Assembly: GCA_964494885.1 (NCBI GenBank)
Contig: CAZBTH010000002.1
Location: forward strand, 29,271-93,270
Length of the DNA stretch: 64,000 bases
Direction of reading: 5' to 3'
DNA from: an uncultured Gammaproteobacteria bacterium
GTDB taxonomy: Bacteria > Patescibacteriota > Microgenomatia > UBA8517
Shown: positions 8,097-42,927 of the stretch, one piece after another
Layout of the letters: each line of letters starts with the position of its first letter
Numbering within the stretch: the first letter of the stretch is position 1
The notes under the pieces: generated by a model
Databases searched by the model: none
What the model saw: only the letters and a program-made list of their open reading frames with translations
What the model was told of the DNA's origin: nothing
Made by a program: the position numbers and the translations under genes

Positions 8097-10724
8097 ATGG
8101 ATATCGGTAAAATTCAACAAACAGAGATAACCACAGAGCTTTCTAAATCATATTTGGATTACGCAATGAGCGTTATCGTTGCCCGAGCCTTGCCGGATGT
8201 ACGGGACGGACTTAAGCCGGTTCACAGGAGAATTTTATATGCAATGCATTTGATGGGACTTCATTTTGTAGGTTCTTCCACAACAAAATCTGCTAAGGTC
8301 GTTGGAGAAGTTTTGGGTAAATATCATCCACACGGAGACATGGCAGTCTACGACGCGATGGTTCGGCTTGCCCAAACCTTTTCGATGCGCTACCCCTTGG
8401 TCCATGGACAAGGAAACTTTGGGTCTGTTGATGGCGACCCGCCAGCAGCCATGCGTTACACCGAGGTTAAACTTGCCAAAATCGCGGACATGATGCTTGC
8501 GGATATGGAGAAAGAAACCGTAGACTTTACGGACAACTTCGACGCAACACTTAAAGAACCGGTTTTTCTTCCCGCAGTTTTACCCAATTTACTCCTTATG
8601 GGAAGCGAGGGAATCGCGGTCGGAATGGCAACAAAAATCCCTCCACATAATTTAACTGAACTTGTTGACGGAATATGCGCCATGATCAAAAAGGGTAAAG
8701 TTATTACCGAGCAAAAGGCACAGGAAGAACAAACAGATTTCGTTATCAAAAAGATCAATCTGGTAGCTTCAGGCGGGTCCAAAGCGTTAACTGAGGCGGA
8801 GGTTAATCCGACAGCAGTTTCTTTTGAAAGCGAAATTGATATTGACGAGCTCACCAATATTATTCCGGGCCCGGACTTTCCTACTGGGGGAGCAATTTAT
8901 GATGCCAACGGACTTAAAGAACTTTATGCAACAGGTCGCGGCAAAATAGTTGTCAGAGGAATTGCAGAAATTGTAGAGGGTGTTAAAGGTAAACAGCAAA
9001 TAATAATTAGTGAACTTCCGTATCAGGTCAATAAAAGTGAACTTGTAGCCAAAATTGCCGAACTTGTAAAAGATAAAAAGGTTGTAGGAATTGCAGATCT
9101 TAGAGATGAAAGCGATAAAGACGGTATGAGGGTGGCGATAGATCTCAAACGCGACGCAAAACCAAAATCTGTTTTGAATAATATTTTCAAACACACCAGA
9201 CTTCAAAGTAGCTTCCCTGCGAATTTTGTGGCACTTGTTGACGGCACCCCCCACACATTAAATCTCAAAACAATTCTGGTTGAATACGTTAAACATAGAC
9301 AAAGAGTGGTCATAAGACGTACCATCTTTGAGTTAACGGAGGCCAAAAAGCGAGCTCATATTTTGGAAGGGCTTAAAATCGCATTAGACAATTTAGATGC
9401 AGTAATCAAAACCATTAGAGAAAGTAAAACTCAGGAGGATGCAAAGAAAAACTTAATTGAAAGATTTAAATTGTCCGAAATCCAAGCAACCGCCATTTTA
9501 GATATGCAACTCAGACGCCTTGCGGCACTTGAGAGGGAAAAAATTGAGAAAGAATATGCAGAAATTAAGAAACTGATAGACCAACTTGTTGCGATCTTAA
9601 AAGACCCTAAGCAGGTTTTAAATATTATTGTTAAAGAACTTGGGGAGTTAAAAGAAAAATATGGTGATGCAAGACGAACAAAAATCTACAAAAACCCGCT
9701 CGGGGAAATCAGCGAAGAAGATTTGGTTGCCAAGGAAGAAACATTGATTACAGTCACAAAAACGGGTTATGTTAAACGTCTTTCTGCCACAAGTTACCGC
9801 GCACAGCGTCGGGGAGGGAAGGGTGTAATCGGAATGGCAACAAAGGAGGAGGATGAAATAGAACACATTCTATCGGCAACCACCCACGATACGATATTAT
9901 TCTTTACCAATAAAGGCCGTGTTTTCGGGCTAAAAGCATGGGAAATTCCTGAAAGCAGTAGACTGGCAAAGGGACAGGCCCTTGTTAACTTATTGAATCT
10001 TGAACAGGGTGAAGAAATAAAATCTATTTTACCGCTTTCAAAAGAAATGGGGATTAAAAATTTGGTAATGGCTACCAAAAACGGACTCATTAAAAAAACA
10101 AGTATCGATCAATTCGAAAATTTGAGGGCATCCGGGCTAATAGCAATCAAGCTTAGGGATAATGACATGCTCATTTCTGTTCACCCGACTACTGGCGACG
10201 ACCATATTATTCTTCTTACTCGGAACGCCAAGTCAATAAGATTTCCAGAGACAAATGCCAGGCCCATGGGTCGTGCCACAACCGGAGTCACGGGAATAAA
10301 GATGGACGCTGGGGATGAGCTGATTGGAATGGAAGTCTTCCCAGCAAAAGAAAATATCCCAGCTGACAAAAGGAAAAAGTTCTACCGCGATATTTTGACA
10401 ATTGCCGAGCACGGACTCGGGAAACGTACCCCAATTCATCTTTTCCCTATACAAAAAAGGTCTGGCAAAGGTGTTAAAGCGGCAGTGGTTTCAGCAAAAA
10501 CCGGGGATTTAAAAACAGCCGCAATGGTCACTGAAAAATTTGATCAGGTGATAATTACTTCAAAAATTGGGCAGGTGATTAAACTACCATTGAAAAATAT
10601 TCCCCAACTTGGAAGAGCTACGCAAGGAGTAATACTTATGCGCTTTGCGGATAAAGCAGATTCTGTTGCCGCAGCAGCTGTTTTGGAAAAAGGAGTAGAC
10701 GAAGAAGAAGAGGAAGAGGATTAA
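8097..10724 (+). CDS. gyrA: DNA gyrase subunit A
   Basis: [15 protein letters not shown] and YHPHGD motifs, AAMRYTE active-site Tyr, repeated C-terminal blades, acidic tail DEEEEEED. Confidence 0.95.
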
Positions 10725-10729
10725 CAAAT

Positions 10730-11388
10730 ATGGCTGATCGTGCAGACATAGACAAAAACATACTTCAAAATAAACCAAAACAAGAAGAAATCCCTTATAA
10801 ATTTCACGGCAACTACACAAAGGAGGAGCTTGGTGTTTTAGCTGATTTTATGCATGCCGAGTTCCCACATATTACATATGGGGGGGGAGAGATAGAAAAA
10901 TCATTATTGAAGTTCCACCGAAAGATATCTGCTCTTTTGATGAATGGAAACAAATTTTAGACACAGTTCTTGCTCCAGAAATAAAAACATTTCACCCAAC
11001 TATTAGAAGAAATCAGGAAATCATTGTTCGTTTTGTGAATAAACTCTGGGACAGAAACAATGCTCTAGAATCAGGTGGAACCGGCATGGGTCACAATGAT
11101 GAGCATTGGTTTCGACTATCAATAAATGGCAAAAGTAAAGAAGATTTAACTTTTTGTTTGATGCACGAACTTGTTGAATATGATTTTTGGGAAAAAACGA
11201 AACCTGGCGACACTGAAGCCGAAGTCAAATCTACAGACGAAATTAATGCTTTCAAAGCAGATGATCTAACTTACCAGAACTTACTTGACGAGAAAATTGC
11301 TAACCGAAGAGCTTTAAAAGCGGTTAGAAGAATGTGGCCTTTTGCTCATTTTGATAATCCGGACATGATCTATGGCGAAGACAAATGA
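10730..11388 (+). pseudogene. Hypothetical protein gene interrupted by a frameshift at a G8 homopolymer (10880-10887). The ORFs at 10730-10960 and 11035-11388 are one gene if a G is added
   Basis: Frame 1 is open with no start codon from 10801 to 11034 and overlaps the frame-2 ORF across the G8 tract; with G9 there is a continuous 219-codon ORF. Confidence 0.5.
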
Positions 11389-37019: not shown

Positions 37020-37048
37020 TTGACAAGCGCTAAAAGGTGTGATATCAT
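37020..37048 (+). promoter_or_regulatory. Sigma-70-type promoter TTGACA-N17-(TGa)TATCAT reading into the ORF-free region
   Basis: Consensus -35, 17-bp spacer, extended -10. Confidence 0.45.
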
Positions 37049-37532
37049 TCCCAAGTTGGATTTAATCCAGCACTCGCACATTTAATATCAGTTCGCAAGG
37101 CGCTTACGGGCCGCAACTTGCCAACCATTTATTGGTTGGCAGCTTTCGGTTCGCAAGTGTCATGCGGGAACTCGGTTGAAAAACCCTGTTCAACGTGGGC
37201 GGTGCCTACGTTTCAAAACCGGCAATGCGCGTTGCCTCCTTGACAGATGTATCGCCCAGCGATCATCTTAAAGCAGCCTCAACATGAGGTTTGGCAATAG
37301 CTAGTCCGTGATGCAGATCATTGACCTTGAGTAGGCCACCTGTTGTCTATCCATTATTTTTTGGAGAAACAGACTCCGGCTTACTGGCTTTGATTTTGCA
37401 TTTTGACGCTTGCGAACCGTTTTTTTAATAATTTCTAGGGGAAAGGACTGGATTCCTCTCTCAGATGTGTTTTGACCAATTTGCGGTCATTGCTTTCTGA
37501 GCTCAAAGAATCCTATTTATCCCCCTTTTATC

Positions 37533-37600
37533 CGAGCCCAGTTTTGGACTGAAACAACAAACATTTTTTTATATTGTTGTTTCTTTTCAGACTGGGCTCG
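37533..37600 (+). repeat. About 68-nt long imperfect hairpin / inverted repeat (CGAGCCCAGT ... ACTGGGCTCG with paired inner arms)
   Basis: 10-bp outer stem plus CTGAAA/TTTCAG and CAACAA/TTGTTG inner pairings around an A/T loop. Confidence 0.6.
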
Positions 37601-37640
37601 CTTACTTTTAGAGCCTAAATTTATCAAATAAATCCTTATT

Positions 37641-37668
37641 TGTTCTACTGTTCTAGAACAATAGAACA
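37641..37668. promoter_or_regulatory. 28-bp near-palindrome TGTTCTACTGTTCTAGAACAATAGAACA (four AGAAC/GTTCT half-sites), directly upstream of a promoter
   Basis: Perfect 12-bp core TGTTCTAGAACA; outer half-sites at 8-bp spacing; -35 TTGACA at 37677-37682 and -10 TATATA at 37699-37704. Confidence 0.5.
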
Positions 37669-37950
37669 CTTCAAATTTGACATAAAGATCAATGTTGTTA
37701 TATACTTCCCACAGTTAAATAAATCCGTTTGCATTGGAGTCACGATCCAAAATCCTCCTTCGCTAAAGCTACGGAAGGAGAACGGAGCCTCACAAAATTG
37801 AGGACGCAGGTCGAAGCGTAAGCAAAGCTTGGCGAATCCAAGCCCCGCTAAAAAAGAAGACAACCATTGTCATCCTGAGCAAATCGAATGGATAGAGATG
37901 GACCAAGAGATCAGTTCGCGCAAGCGGATTGGTAACAAAGAATGGGACCG

Positions 37951-38046
37951 CGGAGGTCGGAAGACCCTCGTTTCTTAAGCGAAGTTTAATGCTGAATTTA
38001 TTTCAGCATCTAAGGTACTTGGCTTGATGAACGAGGGTTTTTTGGT
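37951..38046 (+). terminator. Terminator (CCCTCGTT ... AACGAGGG plus T6) ending 9 nt before the 38055 start codon, with an overlapping alternative GNRA-capped hairpin (CGGAGGTC-GGAA-GACCCTCG): candidate attenuator or riboswitch expression platform
   Basis: 8-bp stem enclosing the sub-hairpin ATGCTGAA/TTCAGCAT, then TTTTTT; the upstream hairpin shares the CCCTCG strand, so the two structures are mutually exclusive. Confidence 0.45.
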
Positions 38047-38054
38047 GAAAAAAT

Positions 38055-39329
38055 ATGGAAAGCATCAATAGACAAAATGATTGGAAAAATGCAACCCCTT
38101 ACGGACGCGAAACCATCCAGGGGAGGTCGGAACGTGCATTGACACTTCCCCGCGAAGTTCTAGATCAATACAAAGAAACTGCCTCAGCCTTTGGTGCCTT
38201 TACCCAAACAGTTTTAGGAAACTGGGATTACATTTTAAAAGAAAGCCGTCTGGCTCAAATAATTTGGAGCAAATTTGGACCAGTTCAAAAAGCTTTATTC
38301 CGAAAGTCCTCAGAACAAATACTGGGCGGCATTCCGTATACGATCCGTTTTGACAGCACCCTAGGAGAAGACGGAAATGTAGCTATATTTGAACCTGAGA
38401 TTCAAAATTGCGGTGACGGTCCCTTGTTTCAAAAAATAAACGAATATGGCAGAGATTCAACCATTGGTAACACTGATTTGCTTCAGAAAATACAGGAGTA
38501 CCTTAAAGAAAAAGGTCCAATAGCTGTATCTAGATCCAGAGACAACATGACTTTCTATTGGCCTACAATTAAAACTTTGTCGCAAGCGATTAGAACATCC
38601 GGAATCGAAACAATTCCAGTGACGCTTGACGATCTGGAAATCTCTGAGAACGGAATTTTTTGGATCCCTGACGAAACATCTGAAAGTAAAGGTGAACTAT
38701 TAACCTCACCTACCTGGTACAAGATTAAAAGCGACCGTCTTAAAATACAGACCTTATATAACCAACTAGGCACAAAAGCAATATTTTTTCCCAACGACCA
38801 GGAGGTAGCTCTTTTTCAAACCTATCGCTTAAATAAAGTTGATATCTTTCCAACTCCAAATCCTCTAATCGCATCCAAAGCTATATTGGCTCTCATGTGG
38901 GATGAGCAAATCAGAGAAACTTTATTAAATATTGATACCAAATTAAATAAAGAAATACAGGCTTTAAGAACTTACGTTCCACCTTCGTTCATAGGAAAAT
39001 TGAATTGTCCCCCACCCAATCAAATCCTACCAGCCGTAATTAAACCGATTTTCGGCGCCAAGCAACAAGGAATCGAAATAATTGGTTTACCCAGACAACT
39101 TGAAAAAGTCAAACAAGATACAAACATGATTATCCAAAGGTGGGTCCAGCCTTATATTTGGAGATTCAAGATTGACGGAGAAGAGAAAAGATTCAAAACC
39201 AGACTCGAATCATTTTGCTGGATAGAAAACGGCCAAGGAATACCTGTAGATTTTCTCGCAACCGGATCAACTAGCGACATTGTTGGCGGTAACCGATATG
39301 GACCGATGACAACAGTATATTTTAAATAA
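38055..39329 (+). CDS. Glutathionylspermidine synthase-family (GspS/YgiC/YjfC-like) ATP-grasp ligase
   Basis: AVIKPIFGAKQQGIEII matches the YgiC VVKPIFSREGANVSII ATP-grasp strand; LIASKAILALMWDE matches the SNKALLPLLWE region. Confidence 0.55.
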   Translation: MESINRQNDWKNATPYGRETIQGRSERALTLPREVLDQYKETASAFGAFTQTVLGNWDYILKESRLAQIIWSKFGPVQKALFRKSSEQILGGIPYTIRFDSTLGEDGNVAIFEPEIQNCGDGPLFQKINEYGRDSTIGNTDLLQKIQEYLKEKGPIAVSRSRDNMTFYWPTIKTLSQAIRTSGIETIPVTLDDLEISENGIFWIPDETSESKGELLTSPTWYKIKSDRLKIQTLYNQLGTKAIFFPNDQEVALFQTYRLNKVDIFPTPNPLIASKAILALMWDEQIRETLLNIDTKLNKEIQALRTYVPPSFIGKLNCPPPNQILPAVIKPIFGAKQQGIEIIGLPRQLEKVKQDTNMIIQRWVQPYIWRFKIDGEEKRFKTRLESFCWIENGQGIPVDFLATGSTSDIVGGNRYGPMTTVYFK

Positions 39330-39334
39330 TAAAA

Positions 39335-39622
39335 ATGGGAGAAAGAAAAAGCTGGTCAACTGAAAACTATTCGGAAATACTGCCATATCTGAATGGTCCA
39401 AAAAAAACGATAGCAACTGTAGAATTAACCAGATCCCACACAACCATCGTTTACTGGATTCCACCTGACGGTAGGAATGAAGTAAGAGAATGCGATGATT
39501 GCAAAGAACAAGCTGAGTATTTATATTTTGATCAGGATCACACAATGCGATATTATCTAAGACTTTTTTGCAAAGATCATGCGTCCTACCCACTCTCGAG
39601 ATGGTTAAATGAAGAAAGATAA
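39335..39622 (+). CDS. Small Cys-containing hypothetical protein, overlapping the next gene by 14 bp
   Basis: CDDCK...FCKDH; ORF only. Confidence 0.3.
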   Translation: MGERKSWSTENYSEILPYLNGPKKTIATVELTRSHTTIVYWIPPDGRNEVRECDDCKEQAEYLYFDQDHTMRYYLRLFCKDHASYPLSRWLNEER

Positions 39623-40733
39623 AATGAATACTATCGAAATTTTACAAAAACTAATATCTATCCCCTCTTGGGTTGACAACAAAACTAACGAACGGGAAAT
39701 TGGAGAGTGGATTTATAAGTTCCTGAAAACAAATTCAAATCTTGAAGTTTCCAAACAACCCGTCGGTCAGGGAAGATTCAATATAATAGCCCAAAAGGGC
39801 CGAGGGATCGATGTTTTAGTTACCGGACACATTGATACTGTTCAACCAAATTCTAACTGGACTGATAGTCCAACATCGGGAAAGATGATTAATGGCCAAA
39901 TCTTTGGGCGAGGCGCAAGTGATATGAAATGCGGAGTGGCTATTATGCTTTATCTTGCTACACTGCCCAAGTTGAAAGACCGTATTTCTTTTCTGTTTTA
40001 CTGTGATGAGGAATATGACTTTTTGGGAATGAAAGAGTTTGTGAAACTATACACACCTTCCAAGGTCGGACCTTTAAAGGTGAAGCCGAAACTAATTATT
40101 TCACTTGACGGAGAAGGTTTACAGATTGGCAATTCCTGTCGGGGACTAATTGAAATGAAAGTCGAAATCGAGGGCCAAGCTGGACACTCTGCTAATCCAA
40201 AATCTGGAATCAATGCTATCACCGAATCATTTAAGGTAATTGAGAGGTTGAAAAGATGGGTACTAAATTTTAAGAGTGAAGAGCTGGACACTTCAACCCT
40301 AAATATCGCCTATATAAATGGTGGTGGAGGTGAAGGAAACATCATTGCAGAAAAATGTGAGTATATCGTCGAAATTCGTGTAGCCAATGAAAAACTTAAC
40401 GCGAACCTAGCAAAGAAATTTATTACTGAAAATTCTAAAAAATTAGGATTGGAAATCAAGGATATAAAAATTAGACATGATTTGGGAAGTTGGATAACAC
40501 CAAAGAAAGAGTTAAAAAATATTATTTCACTTGCACCAAAGAAAAAACTTAGAAGTGCGAAGAAAAGTGGATATATTGATATTCAAATGCTTTGGAAAGC
40601 TTTTGACAAAGTTCCGACTTTTAGTCTTGGTGCCGGTGAACCCGGGCAATCGCACAAAGCAAATGAGTACGTAAAAATTTCAAAGGTGATGAAAGTTCAA
40701 AAATTTTTCGAAGCTATTCTGGCAAATAAATAA
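39609..40733 (+). CDS. M20-family metallopeptidase/deacylase (ArgE/DapE/CPG2-like)
   Basis: VLVTGHIDTVQPN, GRGASDMKCGVA and EEYD metal-binding motifs. Confidence 0.8.
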   Translation: MKKDKMNTIEILQKLISIPSWVDNKTNEREIGEWIYKFLKTNSNLEVSKQPVGQGRFNIIAQKGRGIDVLVTGHIDTVQPNSNWTDSPTSGKMINGQIFGRGASDMKCGVAIMLYLATLPKLKDRISFLFYCDEEYDFLGMKEFVKLYTPSKVGPLKVKPKLIISLDGEGLQIGNSCRGLIEMKVEIEGQAGHSANPKSGINAITESFKVIERLKRWVLNFKSEELDTSTLNIAYINGGGGEGNIIAEKCEYIVEIRVANEKLNANLAKKFITENSKKLGLEIKDIKIRHDLGSWITPKKELKNIISLAPKKKLRSAKKSGYIDIQMLWKAFDKVPTFSLGAGEPGQSHKANEYVKISKVMKVQKFFEAILANK

Positions 40734-41957
40734 ATGTTAAACTTTAAAGAGATGAATAAATTACAAACATTAAAAGGTTTTAGGGACTTTCTACCGAAAG
40801 ATGCCCTAAAACGAACGTGGGTTAGAAACAAGATGATTTCCGTTGCCGAAAGGTGGGGTTATGAACCGATCGAAACGCCCACACTTGAACCCTATTCCCT
40901 ATTCAAAGGAGAAATCGGGGAAGATGAAAAATTATTTTACAAATTTACCGATAATGGAGATCGTGAAGTTATGCTTAGGTACGACCAAACAGTCCCAACT
41001 TGCAGGTATGTTGCAGCTAACCAAAATTCGCTGACATTCCCTTTCAAGAGATATCAATGTCAATCGGTCTTTAGGGCAGAAAATACACAACGAGGACGAT
41101 ACCGCGAATTTACACAATTTGATTTGGACATTTTCGGAGTTGCCTCGGCGTCGGCTGATGCCGAGGTTATAGCTGAAAATTTGGATACATATTTAAACAT
41201 AGGATTTAAAAAACCCATTGTCGTCTTCAACAACAGGGATCTAATGAAAGATATTCCCTATGAAGCGATAGTGGCCATCGATAAACTTAAAAAAATTGGT
41301 GAACAAGGAGTAATTGAAGATATGATTAAGAAGAGAATATCAGAAAATCTGGCCAAGGAGTATTTCAAAAAAGTTCTAGAAATAAAACCCGACGAAACGG
41401 TCAAAACTATAATTTCCTATCTTGAAAAATCCGGATTCGGAAGTGAATATTATCGCTTTGAGCCCACACTCGCCAGATCCTTCTCCTACTCTCAGGGACC
41501 CATTTGGGAAATTGTTATTGAAGATTACGGCGCCGGTTCGGTTGGCGGCGGAGAACGTTATGATGGAATGATGAAACGCCTGACCGGCCTGGACATTCCG
41601 GCAACTGGGATTGCTTTTGGTTTTGACAGAACGGTGGAAGCAGCAGATCAATTAAATCTTATTCCTGTTGAACTTACTAAAACCAAAGCACTTGTTACAA
41701 TTTTTGCCCCGGACTTACTCGAAAACTCAATAAAAGTTGCCCGCGATTTAAGGGAAAACAAAATTAATACAGAACTTTATCCAAATGAAAATGCAAAACT
41801 TGATAAACAACTCAAATATGCCGACAAAAAAGGAATTCCCTATGTAGTGATAATCGGACCGGAGGAAGTTAAAGAAAATAAAGTAGTTCTTAAGAATCTC
41901 AAAACCAAAGAGCAAACAAAAACAACAACAGAGAATCTGATTTCATTGATTAAATAA
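40734..41957 (+). CDS. hisS: Histidyl-tRNA synthetase
   Basis: LKGFRDFLP N-terminus, class II motif 2 FRAENTQRGRYREFTQFDLDIFG, motif 3 GGERYDGM, C-terminal anticodon-binding domain. Confidence 0.9.
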   Translation: MLNFKEMNKLQTLKGFRDFLPKDALKRTWVRNKMISVAERWGYEPIETPTLEPYSLFKGEIGEDEKLFYKFTDNGDREVMLRYDQTVPTCRYVAANQNSLTFPFKRYQCQSVFRAENTQRGRYREFTQFDLDIFGVASASADAEVIAENLDTYLNIGFKKPIVVFNNRDLMKDIPYEAIVAIDKLKKIGEQGVIEDMIKKRISENLAKEYFKKVLEIKPDETVKTIISYLEKSGFGSEYYRFEPTLARSFSYSQGPIWEIVIEDYGAGSVGGGERYDGMMKRLTGLDIPATGIAFGFDRTVEAADQLNLIPVELTKTKALVTIFAPDLLENSIKVARDLRENKINTELYPNENAKLDKQLKYADKKGIPYVVIIGPEEVKENKVVLKNLKTKEQTKTTTENLISLIK

Positions 41958-42018: not shown

Positions 42019-42927
42019 ATGAACTCTGCCCGAAAACGCGCTTATATTGAGCTCCTAATTGTGACCATTATCTGGGGTGCGGCAACCCCGATCATTAAAT
42101 ATACGCTGGAGGGTTTTAATACTCTTACATTTCTTACATACCGCTTCGGACTCTCTACAATCCTTGCCGTCCTAGCATTTATAATCTTAAAACAGCACCT
42201 ACCCAAAGATAAATCTACGTTAGTTAAACTGTTGAAATTCGGCTTTTTGACATCAACAGTGTCTTTGGGCTTTTTGTTTTTTGGTTTGGAGAACACAACC
42301 GTGCTGGACGCAAGTCTAATTACCCTCGCAAACCCAATCTTAATAACTGTTGCCGGTGTTATGTTCCTTAGAGAGCGCGTGACCAAACGGGAAAAGATCG
42401 GCATGGCAATTGCCCTTGCCGGAACACTCCTGACTGTTATTGAGCCGATTTTACAAAATCACGGCGGACAAATTAGGCTTTCAGGAAACGTATTAATAGT
42501 AGGCTATTTAGTTGCCACAGCTTGGGGAGCGGTTCTGGCTAAGGAGCTTCTAAGAACAGGGGTATCTCCATTGATTATGACAAATGCATCATTCGTAATT
42601 GGCTTTATTTCACTTTTACCGCCATTTCTAATTACAAACATCCAGCCATTGACCGCCATTGTTTCTGCTCCGATATTTTATCACCTTGGAGTTTTCTTCA
42701 TGGCGTTTTTATCCGGAAATTTGGCCTACTATCTGTCGAACAAAGCCCAGAAAACTATCGAGATCGGAGAGGCATCCCTATTCTCATACCTCTACCCCGT
42801 CTTCTCTACCCCGCTTGCTATTCTCTGGCTTGGAGAATCAATTACCCCTGTTTTTATTGCCGGTGCAGTTATAATCACGCTCGGAGTCATTCTTGCCGAA
42901 ACAAAGAAGGCGAAAAAAACTGGTTAA
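42019..42927 (+). CDS. EamA/DMT-family transporter
   Basis: 10 TM helices in two EamA-like halves. Confidence 0.7.
   Translation: MNSARKRAYIELLIVTIIWGAATPIIKYTLEGFNTLTFLTYRFGLSTILAVLAFIILKQHLPKDKSTLVKLLKFGFLTSTVSLGFLFFGLENTTVLDASLITLANPILITVAGVMFLRERVTKREKIGMAIALAGTLLTVIEPILQNHGGQIRLSGNVLIVGYLVATAWGAVLAKELLRTGVSPLIMTNASFVIGFISLLPPFLITNIQPLTAIVSAPIFYHLGVFFMAFLSGNLAYYLSNKAQKTIEIGEASLFSYLYPVFSTPLAILWLGESITPVFIAGAVIITLGVILAETKKAKKTG

Follow-up and report, generated by a model that had tools for sequence, protein, structure and literature searches.

A putative histidine-type T-box ahead of a divergent ATP-grasp ligase, an M20 amidohydrolase and hisS in a Woesebacteria genome

Why would a bacterium keep a ligase and a hydrolase directly ahead of its histidyl-tRNA synthetase gene? 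This question is raised by positions 38055-41957 of a 64,000-nt stretch of contig CAZBTH010000002.1 (the whole stretch is hereafter the window), where four tightly packed, co-directional open reading frames (ORFs) of the + strand encode a 424-aa ligase, a small protein of 95 aa, an M20 metallo-amidohydrolase and the histidyl-tRNA synthetase itself (HisRS, gene hisS). An initial annotation of the sequence had likened the ligase and hydrolase to systems that build and remove some amide-linked modification. The structured leader of these genes, whose T-box nature that annotation did not recognise, is by its anatomy a histidine-specific T-box, and it is the key functional clue to the locus: it places both enzymes in the regulon of uncharged tRNA-His rather than in a modification system of unspecified kind. 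The components (ATP-grasp ligase, M20 deacylase, T-box) belong to known kinds and do not make up a categorically new system, yet the operon points to a histidine-related pathway that has not been described.

The source organism is a member of Candidatus Woesebacteria (Microgenomates), within the candidate phyla radiation (CPR/Patescibacteria). The HisRS of the window is 89% identical to that of Candidatus Woesebacteria GW2011_GWB1_39_10, and identical contigs come from groundwater metagenomes. ORFs and junctions were read directly from the window sequence.

The leader ahead of the ligase gene

A sigma-70-type promoter of the + strand (TTGACA-18-TATACT, 37677-37706, with 11 of 12 consensus matches) precedes the leader (from 37713 or 37717 to 38046, + strand), whose structure is drawn from sequence reading, a minimum-free-energy fold and covariation. 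Stem I is a short hairpin (37734-37750) whose 7-nt loop GUCACGA (37739-37745) holds CAC, a histidine codon, as specifier (37741-37743); stem II and a IIA/B pseudoknot region come next, and then stem III. The antiterminator, AAGAA-UGGGACC-GCGGAGGUC-GGAA-GACCCUCGU-UUCUU, is built of helix A1 (37938-37942/37972-37976), a 7-nt bulge starting with UGGG (UGGGACC, 37943-37949) and helix A2 (37950-37958/37963-37971). Its 3′ strand is common to a competing terminator hairpin (about 37961-38037), followed by a U-tract (38038-38043) just before the ligase ATG. The minimum-free-energy fold, terminator included, reaches z = -6.6 against shuffles, and the earlier description of four genes behind a structured leader is borne out.

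Related loci support this anatomy. Helix A1 reads AAGAA/UUCUU in the window and AAGGA/UCCUU in three other loci (L001, L002 and L013), a compensatory change. A scan of metagenomes for the exact 17-18-nt pattern of the bulge region retrieved at least 120 loci (L044-L163), most of which have GUCACG 125-131 nt upstream of that region. Covariation was tested on 43 non-redundant homologous leaders (alignment A6, matching 37717-37960 of the window) with a structure of 30 pairs, comprising a stem I of 4-5 bp with its GUCACGA loop, a second hairpin, a IIA/B-type pseudoknot, the string CCGU(A/U)AAA after it, a further helix and stem III. In this alignment 89% of the cells are paired, and covariation scores 0.68; shuffles give 0.22, none of the 500 attaining the observed value, and slid controls no more than 0.22. 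The GUCACG loop with its CAC is invariant in all 43 leaders. The IIA/B hairpin has the form ACGN...NCGU followed by AAAA, its loop pairing with downstream bases, and two of the pseudoknot pairs (102-152 and 103-151) show both-sided changes in 18/43 and 12/43 sequences. In L001, L013 and many metagenome loci, too, the homologous leader has a TTGACA promoter ahead of it.

At least 31 loci have a leader of this class ahead of hisS, and at least 29 have one ahead of a HisG-like gene; HisD is proposed from gene size only. A tRNA-His(GUG) gene follows the leader directly in 15 of the 20 loci checked, which means that the sensed tRNA appears to be transcribed under the control of its own switch. This gene sits between the T-box terminator and the first protein gene in L014, L050, L058, L065, L071, L079, L082, L095, L103, L116 (407-480), L119, L122, L131, L160 and L001, while the leader of the window has no tRNA-His gene after its terminator. 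In L001 the tRNA-His gene encodes G-1 and C73, and a C73 discriminator fits the UGGG of the bulge. Two leaders facing each other, about 3.5 kb apart, were seen in five loci (L057, L063, L066, L067 and L125), one driving a HisG-like gene, a 96-aa ORF and a DapF-like gene, and the other an M15 dipeptidase operon.

Known T-boxes have a 7-nt bulge whose 5′ edge is UGGN and an F-box inside the IIA/B pseudoknot, and include types with a short stem I, typical of translational members (PMC7583486). The leader has a 7-nt UGGN bulge directly 3′ of an A1 helix in competition with a terminator, a matching specifier and a IIA/B pseudoknot with an F-box. A long stem I with the distal elbow-binding motif is absent, stem I being a hairpin of 4-5 bp with the specifier in its terminal loop. 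Judged by this anatomy, the leader appears to be a transcriptional T-box of tRNA-His type with a minimal stem I, a type not previously recognised; within the literature library searched, no paper describes T-boxes from CPR bacteria.

The genes behind the leader

The ligase gene (38055-39329, + strand) ends with TAA at 39327-39329, and the ATG of the small ORF (39335-39622, + strand) comes at 39335, after a spacer of 5 nt. The overlap between these two genes that had been described is thus not there. What the small ORF does overlap, by 14 nt before the end of its stop codon (39620-39622), is the longest M20 reading frame (39609-40733, 374 aa, + strand); with the alternative ATG at 39624, probably the true start of M20 (369 aa), it ends 1 nt before. 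The M20 stop codon (40731-40733) abuts the ATG of hisS (40734-41957, 407 aa, + strand), in agreement with the 0-bp gap annotated before. With spacings of 5 nt, -14 or +1 nt and 0 nt, and with no strong internal promoter or terminator predicted on the + strand between ligase and hisS, the four genes are probably co-transcribed behind the one leader.

The 424-aa protein is, on the strength of its predicted structure, a divergent circularly permuted ATP-grasp ligase with the fold of GspS, YgiC, eukaryotic glutathione synthetase and Cp1B. In 5.8 billion proteins, a word-indexed search picked up the ligase and just two relatives, 52-54% identical to it. A profile run exhaustively against 1.84 billion representatives recovered its own cluster and three matches near E = 1e-3, one of them a true ATP-grasp protein (ATP-grasp_3/ATPgrasp_Ter) and the other two full-length, unannotated relatives of about 410-420 aa. 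Repeating the search with the widened alignment added six further relatives, and a metagenome scan with the ligase alignment gave no confirmed one. After searches of billions of proteins, the family stands at about a dozen sequences, with no Pfam model. An AlphaFold model from a 3-sequence alignment was unusable (pLDDT 41), whereas 10 sequences gave a pLDDT of 76.9 and a pTM of 0.83, and Foldseek results with this model agree with a circularly permuted ATP-grasp fold that superposes on GspS/YgiC. Moreover, the family profile aligns, weakly, to tubulin-tyrosine ligase in permuted order, as expected from a circular permutation. Eight residues are invariant across the ten family sequences (D100, E113, K275, R305, K330, G339, Q361 and R383) and N118 is conserved in at least nine; in the profile alignment D100/E113/N118 and K330 line up with motifs of tubulin-tyrosine ligase.

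The initial annotation had called this protein a GspS-like ATP-grasp ligase with the signatures of the GSP_synth family. The motifs it quoted are present (VIKPIFGAKQQGIEII at residues 328-343 and SKAILALMWDE at residues 274-284), and the fold and probable chemistry are upheld by the model, but the family signatures are not: GSP_synth (Pfam PF03738) gave no match at E<=10 among the five family members scanned, whose weak Pfam matches were to ATP-grasp_4, TTL, CP_ATPgrasp_2 and YheCD only. The ligase itself had no Pfam match at E<=0.1 and none in NCBIfam, PDB (phmmer) or PADLOC. Its relation to GspS/YgiC, as far as the model goes, is visible at the level of the fold and not of the sequence. Enzymes with this fold activate a carboxylate by phosphorylation and couple it to an amine; YgiC and YjfC ligate peptides to spermidine, Cp1B couples a diacid with an L-amino acid, and the characterised members in general link the carboxylate of a peptide or diacid to an amine or to the amine of an amino acid (PMC12568646). 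By this predicted kinship, the ligase probably forms an amide from a carboxylate and an amine. Two other roles were considered and dropped: glutathione synthetase working with a Cys-Gly dipeptidase, which is unconnected with the His T-box context and lacks sequence matches, and a Thg1-like addition of G-1, because the tRNA-His genes read (L001 and L065) already encode this nucleotide.

The M20 protein matches Pfam Peptidase_M20 with 69.2 bits (cut-off 24.6) and M20_dimer with 57.5 bits (cut-off 21), and its best PDB sequence matches are ArgE (7rsf, at 1e-19) and then DapE (about 1e-13), so the ArgE/DapE-like label given to it earlier was well chosen. Its scores stay under the NCBIfam cut-offs for the DapE-ArgE subfamily TIGR01910 (145.2 bits against 217.6), for ArgE TIGR01892 (141.3 against 297.7) and for the DapE models (105-130 against 284-362), and the protein is accordingly neither an ArgE nor a DapE equivalog. 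The full set of metal and catalytic motifs can be read in it (GHIDTV, SDMK, CDEE, GHSANP and SHKANEY), from which it is predicted to be an intact ArgE/DapE-type amidohydrolase of N-acyl-amino acids or dipeptides.

The small protein is far more isolated. Among 5.8 billion proteins only its own cluster was found, and there was no match in Pfam, NCBIfam, PADLOC or a two-sequence PDB profile search. Its single homolog among the matches listed, in L064, is 54% identical end to end and keeps C53, C56, C79, H82, H35, H69 and the C-terminal EER of the WLxEER ending. This pattern has a zinc-knuckle-like layout (C53-x2-C56 ... C79-x2-H82). An analogy with the carrier protein LysW had been set aside earlier for want of both a C-terminal Glu and a zinc-finger layout; the first reason stands, the last residue being Arg, and the second does not. 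The small ORF is absent from the ligase-M20 loci L001 and L002, and the small ORFs upstream of M20 in L017, L019, L021 and L034 are not its homologs. As its distribution suggests, it is an optional accessory gene restricted to few lineages.

The HisRS of the window is full length, matches tRNA-synt_His and HGTP_anticodon (1.8e-18), and scores 339.1 bits against TIGR00442, above the cut-off of 286.75. HisRS-like genes of only about 290 aa occupy the hisS position, ahead of EamA and L31, in L064 (2167-3039 downstream of the motif) and L112 (2065-2943), two loci with a GNAT-like protein and M20; their products lack the anticodon-binding domain, since the alignment covers only residues 12-302 of the window HisRS. 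In the window, an EamA/DMT-family transporter gene (42019-42927, + strand; Pfam EamA at 1e-40) begins 61 nt after hisS, with no predicted terminator between, and the order hisS-EamA-L31 is kept in nearly all related loci. This gene is probably co-transcribed with hisS and may be the last of the unit.

Upstream of the T-box leader, another strong promoter (TTGACA-17-TATCAT, extended -10, 37020-37048) drives about 600 nt of non-coding sequence with GC-rich helices and several UUCG/GCAA-type loops. The element (37020-37660) ends in a long perfect hairpin (37533-37600), stands directly before hisS in L012 (two blocks at 82% and 72% identity), occurs partly in L013, and matches no Rfam family. It is probably a structured RNA of unknown type, separate from the T-box.

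The slot before hisS and what it may serve

The ligase, small ORF and M20 had been presented as a possible conserved trio. Among the loci examined the exact trio occurs in the window species only, and the small ORF has no constant partner, but the ligase-M20 pair does recur, in three lineages: the window, L001 (GCA_040960375.1) and L002, whose ligases are 52-54% identical to that of the window. In the last two the genes are directly adjacent, 3-4 nt apart. The order in L001 is leader, tRNA-His, ligase, M20, Phd/YefM toxin-antitoxin pair and hisS; the antitoxin gene and its 87-aa partner (10438-10988) show that the operon tolerates selfish cargo. A comparison of 32 hisS loci from related genomes places these genes in a wider frame. 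The backbone consists of DnaB, a metallo-beta-lactamase-fold protein, an Ig-like protein, a variable slot, hisS, EamA and L31, and the genes that differ are those of the slot.

Time and again this slot, which separates the His T-box from hisS, contains an amide-forming enzyme and with it a hydrolase, usually of N-deacylase type. Orthologs of the M20 protein (33-74% identity) stand beside hisS or behind a His T-box in about 14 lineages among the matches listed. In at least six loci (L021, L034, L064, L112, L116 and L121) a GNAT-like family with a zinc knuckle takes the place of the ligase beside M20, as in L064 (leader, small ORF, GNAT-like, M20, hisS-like). The M20 of the window is closest, among the matches listed, to M20s with such a partner (74% in L112 and 67% in L064), which argues for non-orthologous displacement of the amide-forming enzyme. 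A second ligase clade (P0004) shares 24% identity with the ligase of the window (hhalign probability 99.7%) and is found in L086 (His T-box, HAD hydrolase, ligase, hisS, EamA, L31) and L011 (HAD, ligase, hisS). L071 has leader, tRNA-His, an AstE/AspA-type deacylase, a probable ATP-grasp protein (probability 62%) and, later, hisS. The GNAT-like protein of L013 (HisRS about 80% identical) lies between T-box leader and hisS, and L014 has a leader remnant, tRNA-His and M20. The ligase family, M20 and the GNAT-like family are thus associated with the His T-box and hisS repeatedly and partly independently.

Among the further proteins encoded in the slot are M15 dipeptidases, DapF-like proteins, M24 peptidases, a HutH-like lyase and a pyridoxal-phosphate-type (PLP) decarboxylase. 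Fusions of 451-459 aa, with a clear GNAT domain and a DapF-like (racemase-type) region, precede an M15 VanX-like dipeptidase and hisS in L016 (2453-3808) and L023 (3927-5306). Genes for M15 dipeptidases and DapF-like proteins are frequent behind the His T-box elsewhere, too, a hint that D-amino-acid or dipeptide forms of histidine are handled. In L122, which is among the closest relatives found (HisRS 88% identical), leader and tRNA-His are followed by a 288-aa protein, one of the unannotated protein families of 280-430 aa in the slot between tRNA-His and hisS (L122, L103, L149, L136, L082, L095 and L119) that share a YA(A/K)(E/Q)G motif and have no Pfam match. The 406-436-aa proteins upstream of hisS in L025, L036 and L037 proved not to be ligase relatives (hhalign probability <1%).

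The reading that we favour, and to which we would give a little less than an even chance, is a make-and-break cycle of N-alpha-acyl or peptidyl histidine, controlled by the His T-box and serving histidine supply. From the leader anatomy and covariation, uncharged tRNA-His, as it accumulates, would pair through its GUG anticodon with CAC in the stem-I loop and through its free 3′ end (discriminator and CCA, with C73 read in relatives' genes) with the UGGG of the bulge, favouring antiterminator over terminator and letting transcription into the genes. Ligase and M20 would then be accessory genes of a histidine-starvation regulon, housed in a slot where, in related CPR genomes, either the ligase family or a GNAT-like protein is joined by M20, by an AstE/AspA-type deacylase or by a HAD hydrolase. 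The chemistry would most likely consist in forming and hydrolysing X-CO-His, in which histidine is N-alpha-acylated or peptidyl-linked. Through hydrolysis by M20, HisRS would be provided with free L-histidine; the ligase would form the conjugate, or form it anew, from free acid and ATP, and the GNAT-like enzyme would presumably do so from acyl-CoA, with the small protein as an optional, lineage-restricted addition.

We infer, for four reasons, that one and the same histidine-containing amide is handled by both the ligase and M20. The genes of T-box regulons are classically those that supply the cognate amino acid; most hydrolase partners (M20 and AstE/AspA, not HAD) are N-deacylases; ATP-grasp and GNAT-like enzymes represent two ways to acylate an amine; and the same pairings of enzyme classes act on histidine in animals, where histidine N-acetyltransferase and an M20 N-acetylhistidine deacetylase match the GNAT-like protein and M20.

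Several observations weigh against the histidine conjugate cycle or the evidence gathered for it. The Rfam T-box model fails on the leader, RF00230 giving no match in the window (2 kb searched at E<=1 and 421 nt at E<=10), and none at gathering score in 16 loci with homologous leaders; retrieval with an exact 17-18-nt motif, furthermore, biases the metagenome loci to this leader class. The whole neighbourhood is common to related genomes, so that adjacency is partly inherited synteny, and in L012, the closest locus by HisRS (89%), hisS is preceded by neither ligase nor M20 nor T-box, which makes the module dispensable. The GNAT assignment is weak (Pfam E 0.001-0.01; PDB profile hits all GNATs, at E 0.06-0.7), the partner of the P0004-clade ligases is a HAD hydrolase and not an amidase, and the most distant ligase clade (P0006-P0011) lies in unrelated surroundings, near TsaD-like/YrdC, radical SAM and glycosyltransferase genes. 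Finally, co-inducing a histidine-consuming ligase and a histidine-releasing hydrolase under histidine limitation looks futile, unless some additional step or a separate compartment comes in. A protect-transform-deprotect scheme, exemplified in Geobacillus by D-to-L conversion through a GNAT, a racemase and an M20 enzyme, would remove this futility but would need a gene that is not seen at the locus.

The synteny and the dispensability feed the rival that survives best, although we consider it unlikely: ligase, small ORF and M20 would have landed in a recombination-prone slot and be merely co-transcribed, M20 being an ordinary ArgE/DapE-like housekeeping enzyme or a general dipeptidase. The slot does carry unrelated cargo, such as the Phd/YefM pair in L001, a NYN nuclease in L036 and L116 and a nitroreductase in L029, and the module is missing from the nearest relative, L012, in a region syntenic among relatives. 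Chance arrival fits poorly, however, with two ligase clades only 24% identical that both adjoin hisS, with the presence of M20 by hisS or behind a His T-box across about 14 lineages, where identity falls as low as 33%, with the recurrence of pairs of amide-forming enzyme and hydrolase made of non-homologous components, or with an M20 that scores below the ArgE and DapE equivalog cut-offs.

The variability of the slot among close relatives is also typical of accessory or resistance genes, and a detoxification role would account for it. The T-box would sense the charging failure caused by a HisRS inhibitor (a histidyl-adenylate mimic) or a toxic histidine analogue, and an extra HisRS would be co-induced with inactivating N-acylation or conjugation (ligase or GNAT-like protein) and amide cleavage (M20). 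GNAT (MccE/RimL) and peptidase (MccF) pairs do detoxify aminoacyl-adenylate mimics, and an amide-forming enzyme stands alone with hisS in L013 (T-box, GNAT-like, hisS). A T-box answers any drop in tRNA-His charging, enzyme inhibition included (PMC7583486). Yet no similarity to MccE, MccF or known resistance families was found, nor any match in PADLOC, whose library is limited to phage defence, and the other members of the regulon (HisG-like, M15 dipeptidase and DapF-like, racemase-type proteins) point to histidine supply. To our knowledge no producer or toxin is known either, and we regard detoxification as improbable.

A third proposal, which strikes us as highly doubtful, is tied to the tRNA. 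Histidine would be placed on an acceptor amine, for instance of a cell-envelope precursor, from His-tRNA-His by the GNAT-like protein and from free histidine and ATP by the ATP-grasp ligase. Such a transfer would account for the grouping with hisS and with tRNA-His genes, the latter inside the operons at 15 of the 20 loci checked, and the equivalent positions of the two proteins; Fem-type (GNAT-fold, tRNA-dependent) and ATP-grasp ligases are indeed alternative solutions for peptidoglycan side chains. Nevertheless, there is no similarity to the Fem, L/F-transferase or MprF families, induction at low charging would drain scarce His-tRNA, no acceptor has been identified and the role of M20 is left unexplained.

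The least probable proposal of all makes the 95-aa zinc-type protein a substrate or carrier, to whose acidic C-terminus (…EER) the ligase would add an amino acid or amine that M20 removes, in the manner of LysW/LysX/LysK or of the tubulin tyrosination cycle; the small gene is indeed wedged between ligase and M20, WLxEER and CxxC...CxxH are kept in the L064 homolog, again near M20 under a His T-box, and the ligase-family profile weakly matches tubulin-tyrosine ligase, but the gene is absent from the ligase-M20 loci L001 and L002, accompanies a GNAT-like protein and not a ligase in L064, is known from two sequences only among the matches listed, ends in Arg and not Glu, and has no LysZ/Y/J-like genes beside it. 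A LysW-type carrier system proper, which would require a carrier with a C-terminal Glu, a RimK/LysX-type ligase and LysZ/Y/J genes, was rejected.

The histidine conjugate cycle could also be extended to the CPR at large, whose members are largely without amino-acid biosynthesis. We advance only tentatively, as a rather doubtful generalisation, that these bacteria salvage or buffer histidine through N-alpha-acyl or peptidyl histidine, made by the ligase or the zinc-knuckle GNAT-like protein, split by M20 or AstE-type enzymes, and switched by the new T-box class, which often drives a tRNA-His gene as well. Be that as it may, T-box regulons are reliable guides to amino-acid supply genes, and this one exposes pairs of ligase or acyltransferase and deacylase in organisms whose acquisition of amino acids is an open question. 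It gives otherwise uncharacterised enzymes a physiological frame and suggests a specific role for an almost unsampled and unannotated ligase family, namely amide ligation in histidine metabolism under the control of tRNA-His charging. A transcriptional T-box with a minimal stem I bears on the view of an elbow-binding stem I as essential in that class, and the leader alignment can be converted into a covariance model for annotating such switches across CPR genomes.

Likeness to known systems

The ligase shares its predicted fold with YgiC/YjfC, GspS and TryS, at an identity of only 11-15% and without their amidase (CHAP) domain, and its context is a His T-box/hisS operon instead of polyamine or glutathione metabolism. 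With eukaryotic-type glutathione synthetase and fungal Cp1B, of the E-64 pathway, there is no detectable sequence similarity, and organisms and pathways differ; the acid and amine partners proposed for the ligase are inferred only. The M20 protein has the catalytic and dimerisation domains of ArgE and DapE, whereas in many CPR lineages it is found beside hisS under a His T-box and not in an arginine or lysine pathway. The LysW/LysX/LysK system likewise unites an ATP-grasp ligase, a small zinc-binding protein and an M20 hydrolase.

A parallel in function may be the animal pair of carnosine synthase (ATPGD1) and carnosinase, where the same two enzyme classes act on the alpha-amine of histidine: the synthase is an ATP-grasp enzyme and the carnosinases are M20 Xaa-His dipeptidases (PMC6271292, PMC3407494). 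Carnosine synthase is not among the structural matches of the ligase, and the likeness is an analogy of logic only.

The nearest relatives of the leader in anatomy are the short-stem-I ("ultrashort") ileS T-boxes of Actinobacteria, which have in common with it the 7-nt UGGN bulge, a specifier in a short stem I, stem III and a IIA/B pseudoknot with an F-box-like CCGU(A/U)A. The His leader differs from known T-boxes in joining a short stem I without the elbow motif to a transcription terminator, in an extra conserved helix between pseudoknot and stem III, and in the tRNA-His gene that is often embedded behind it.

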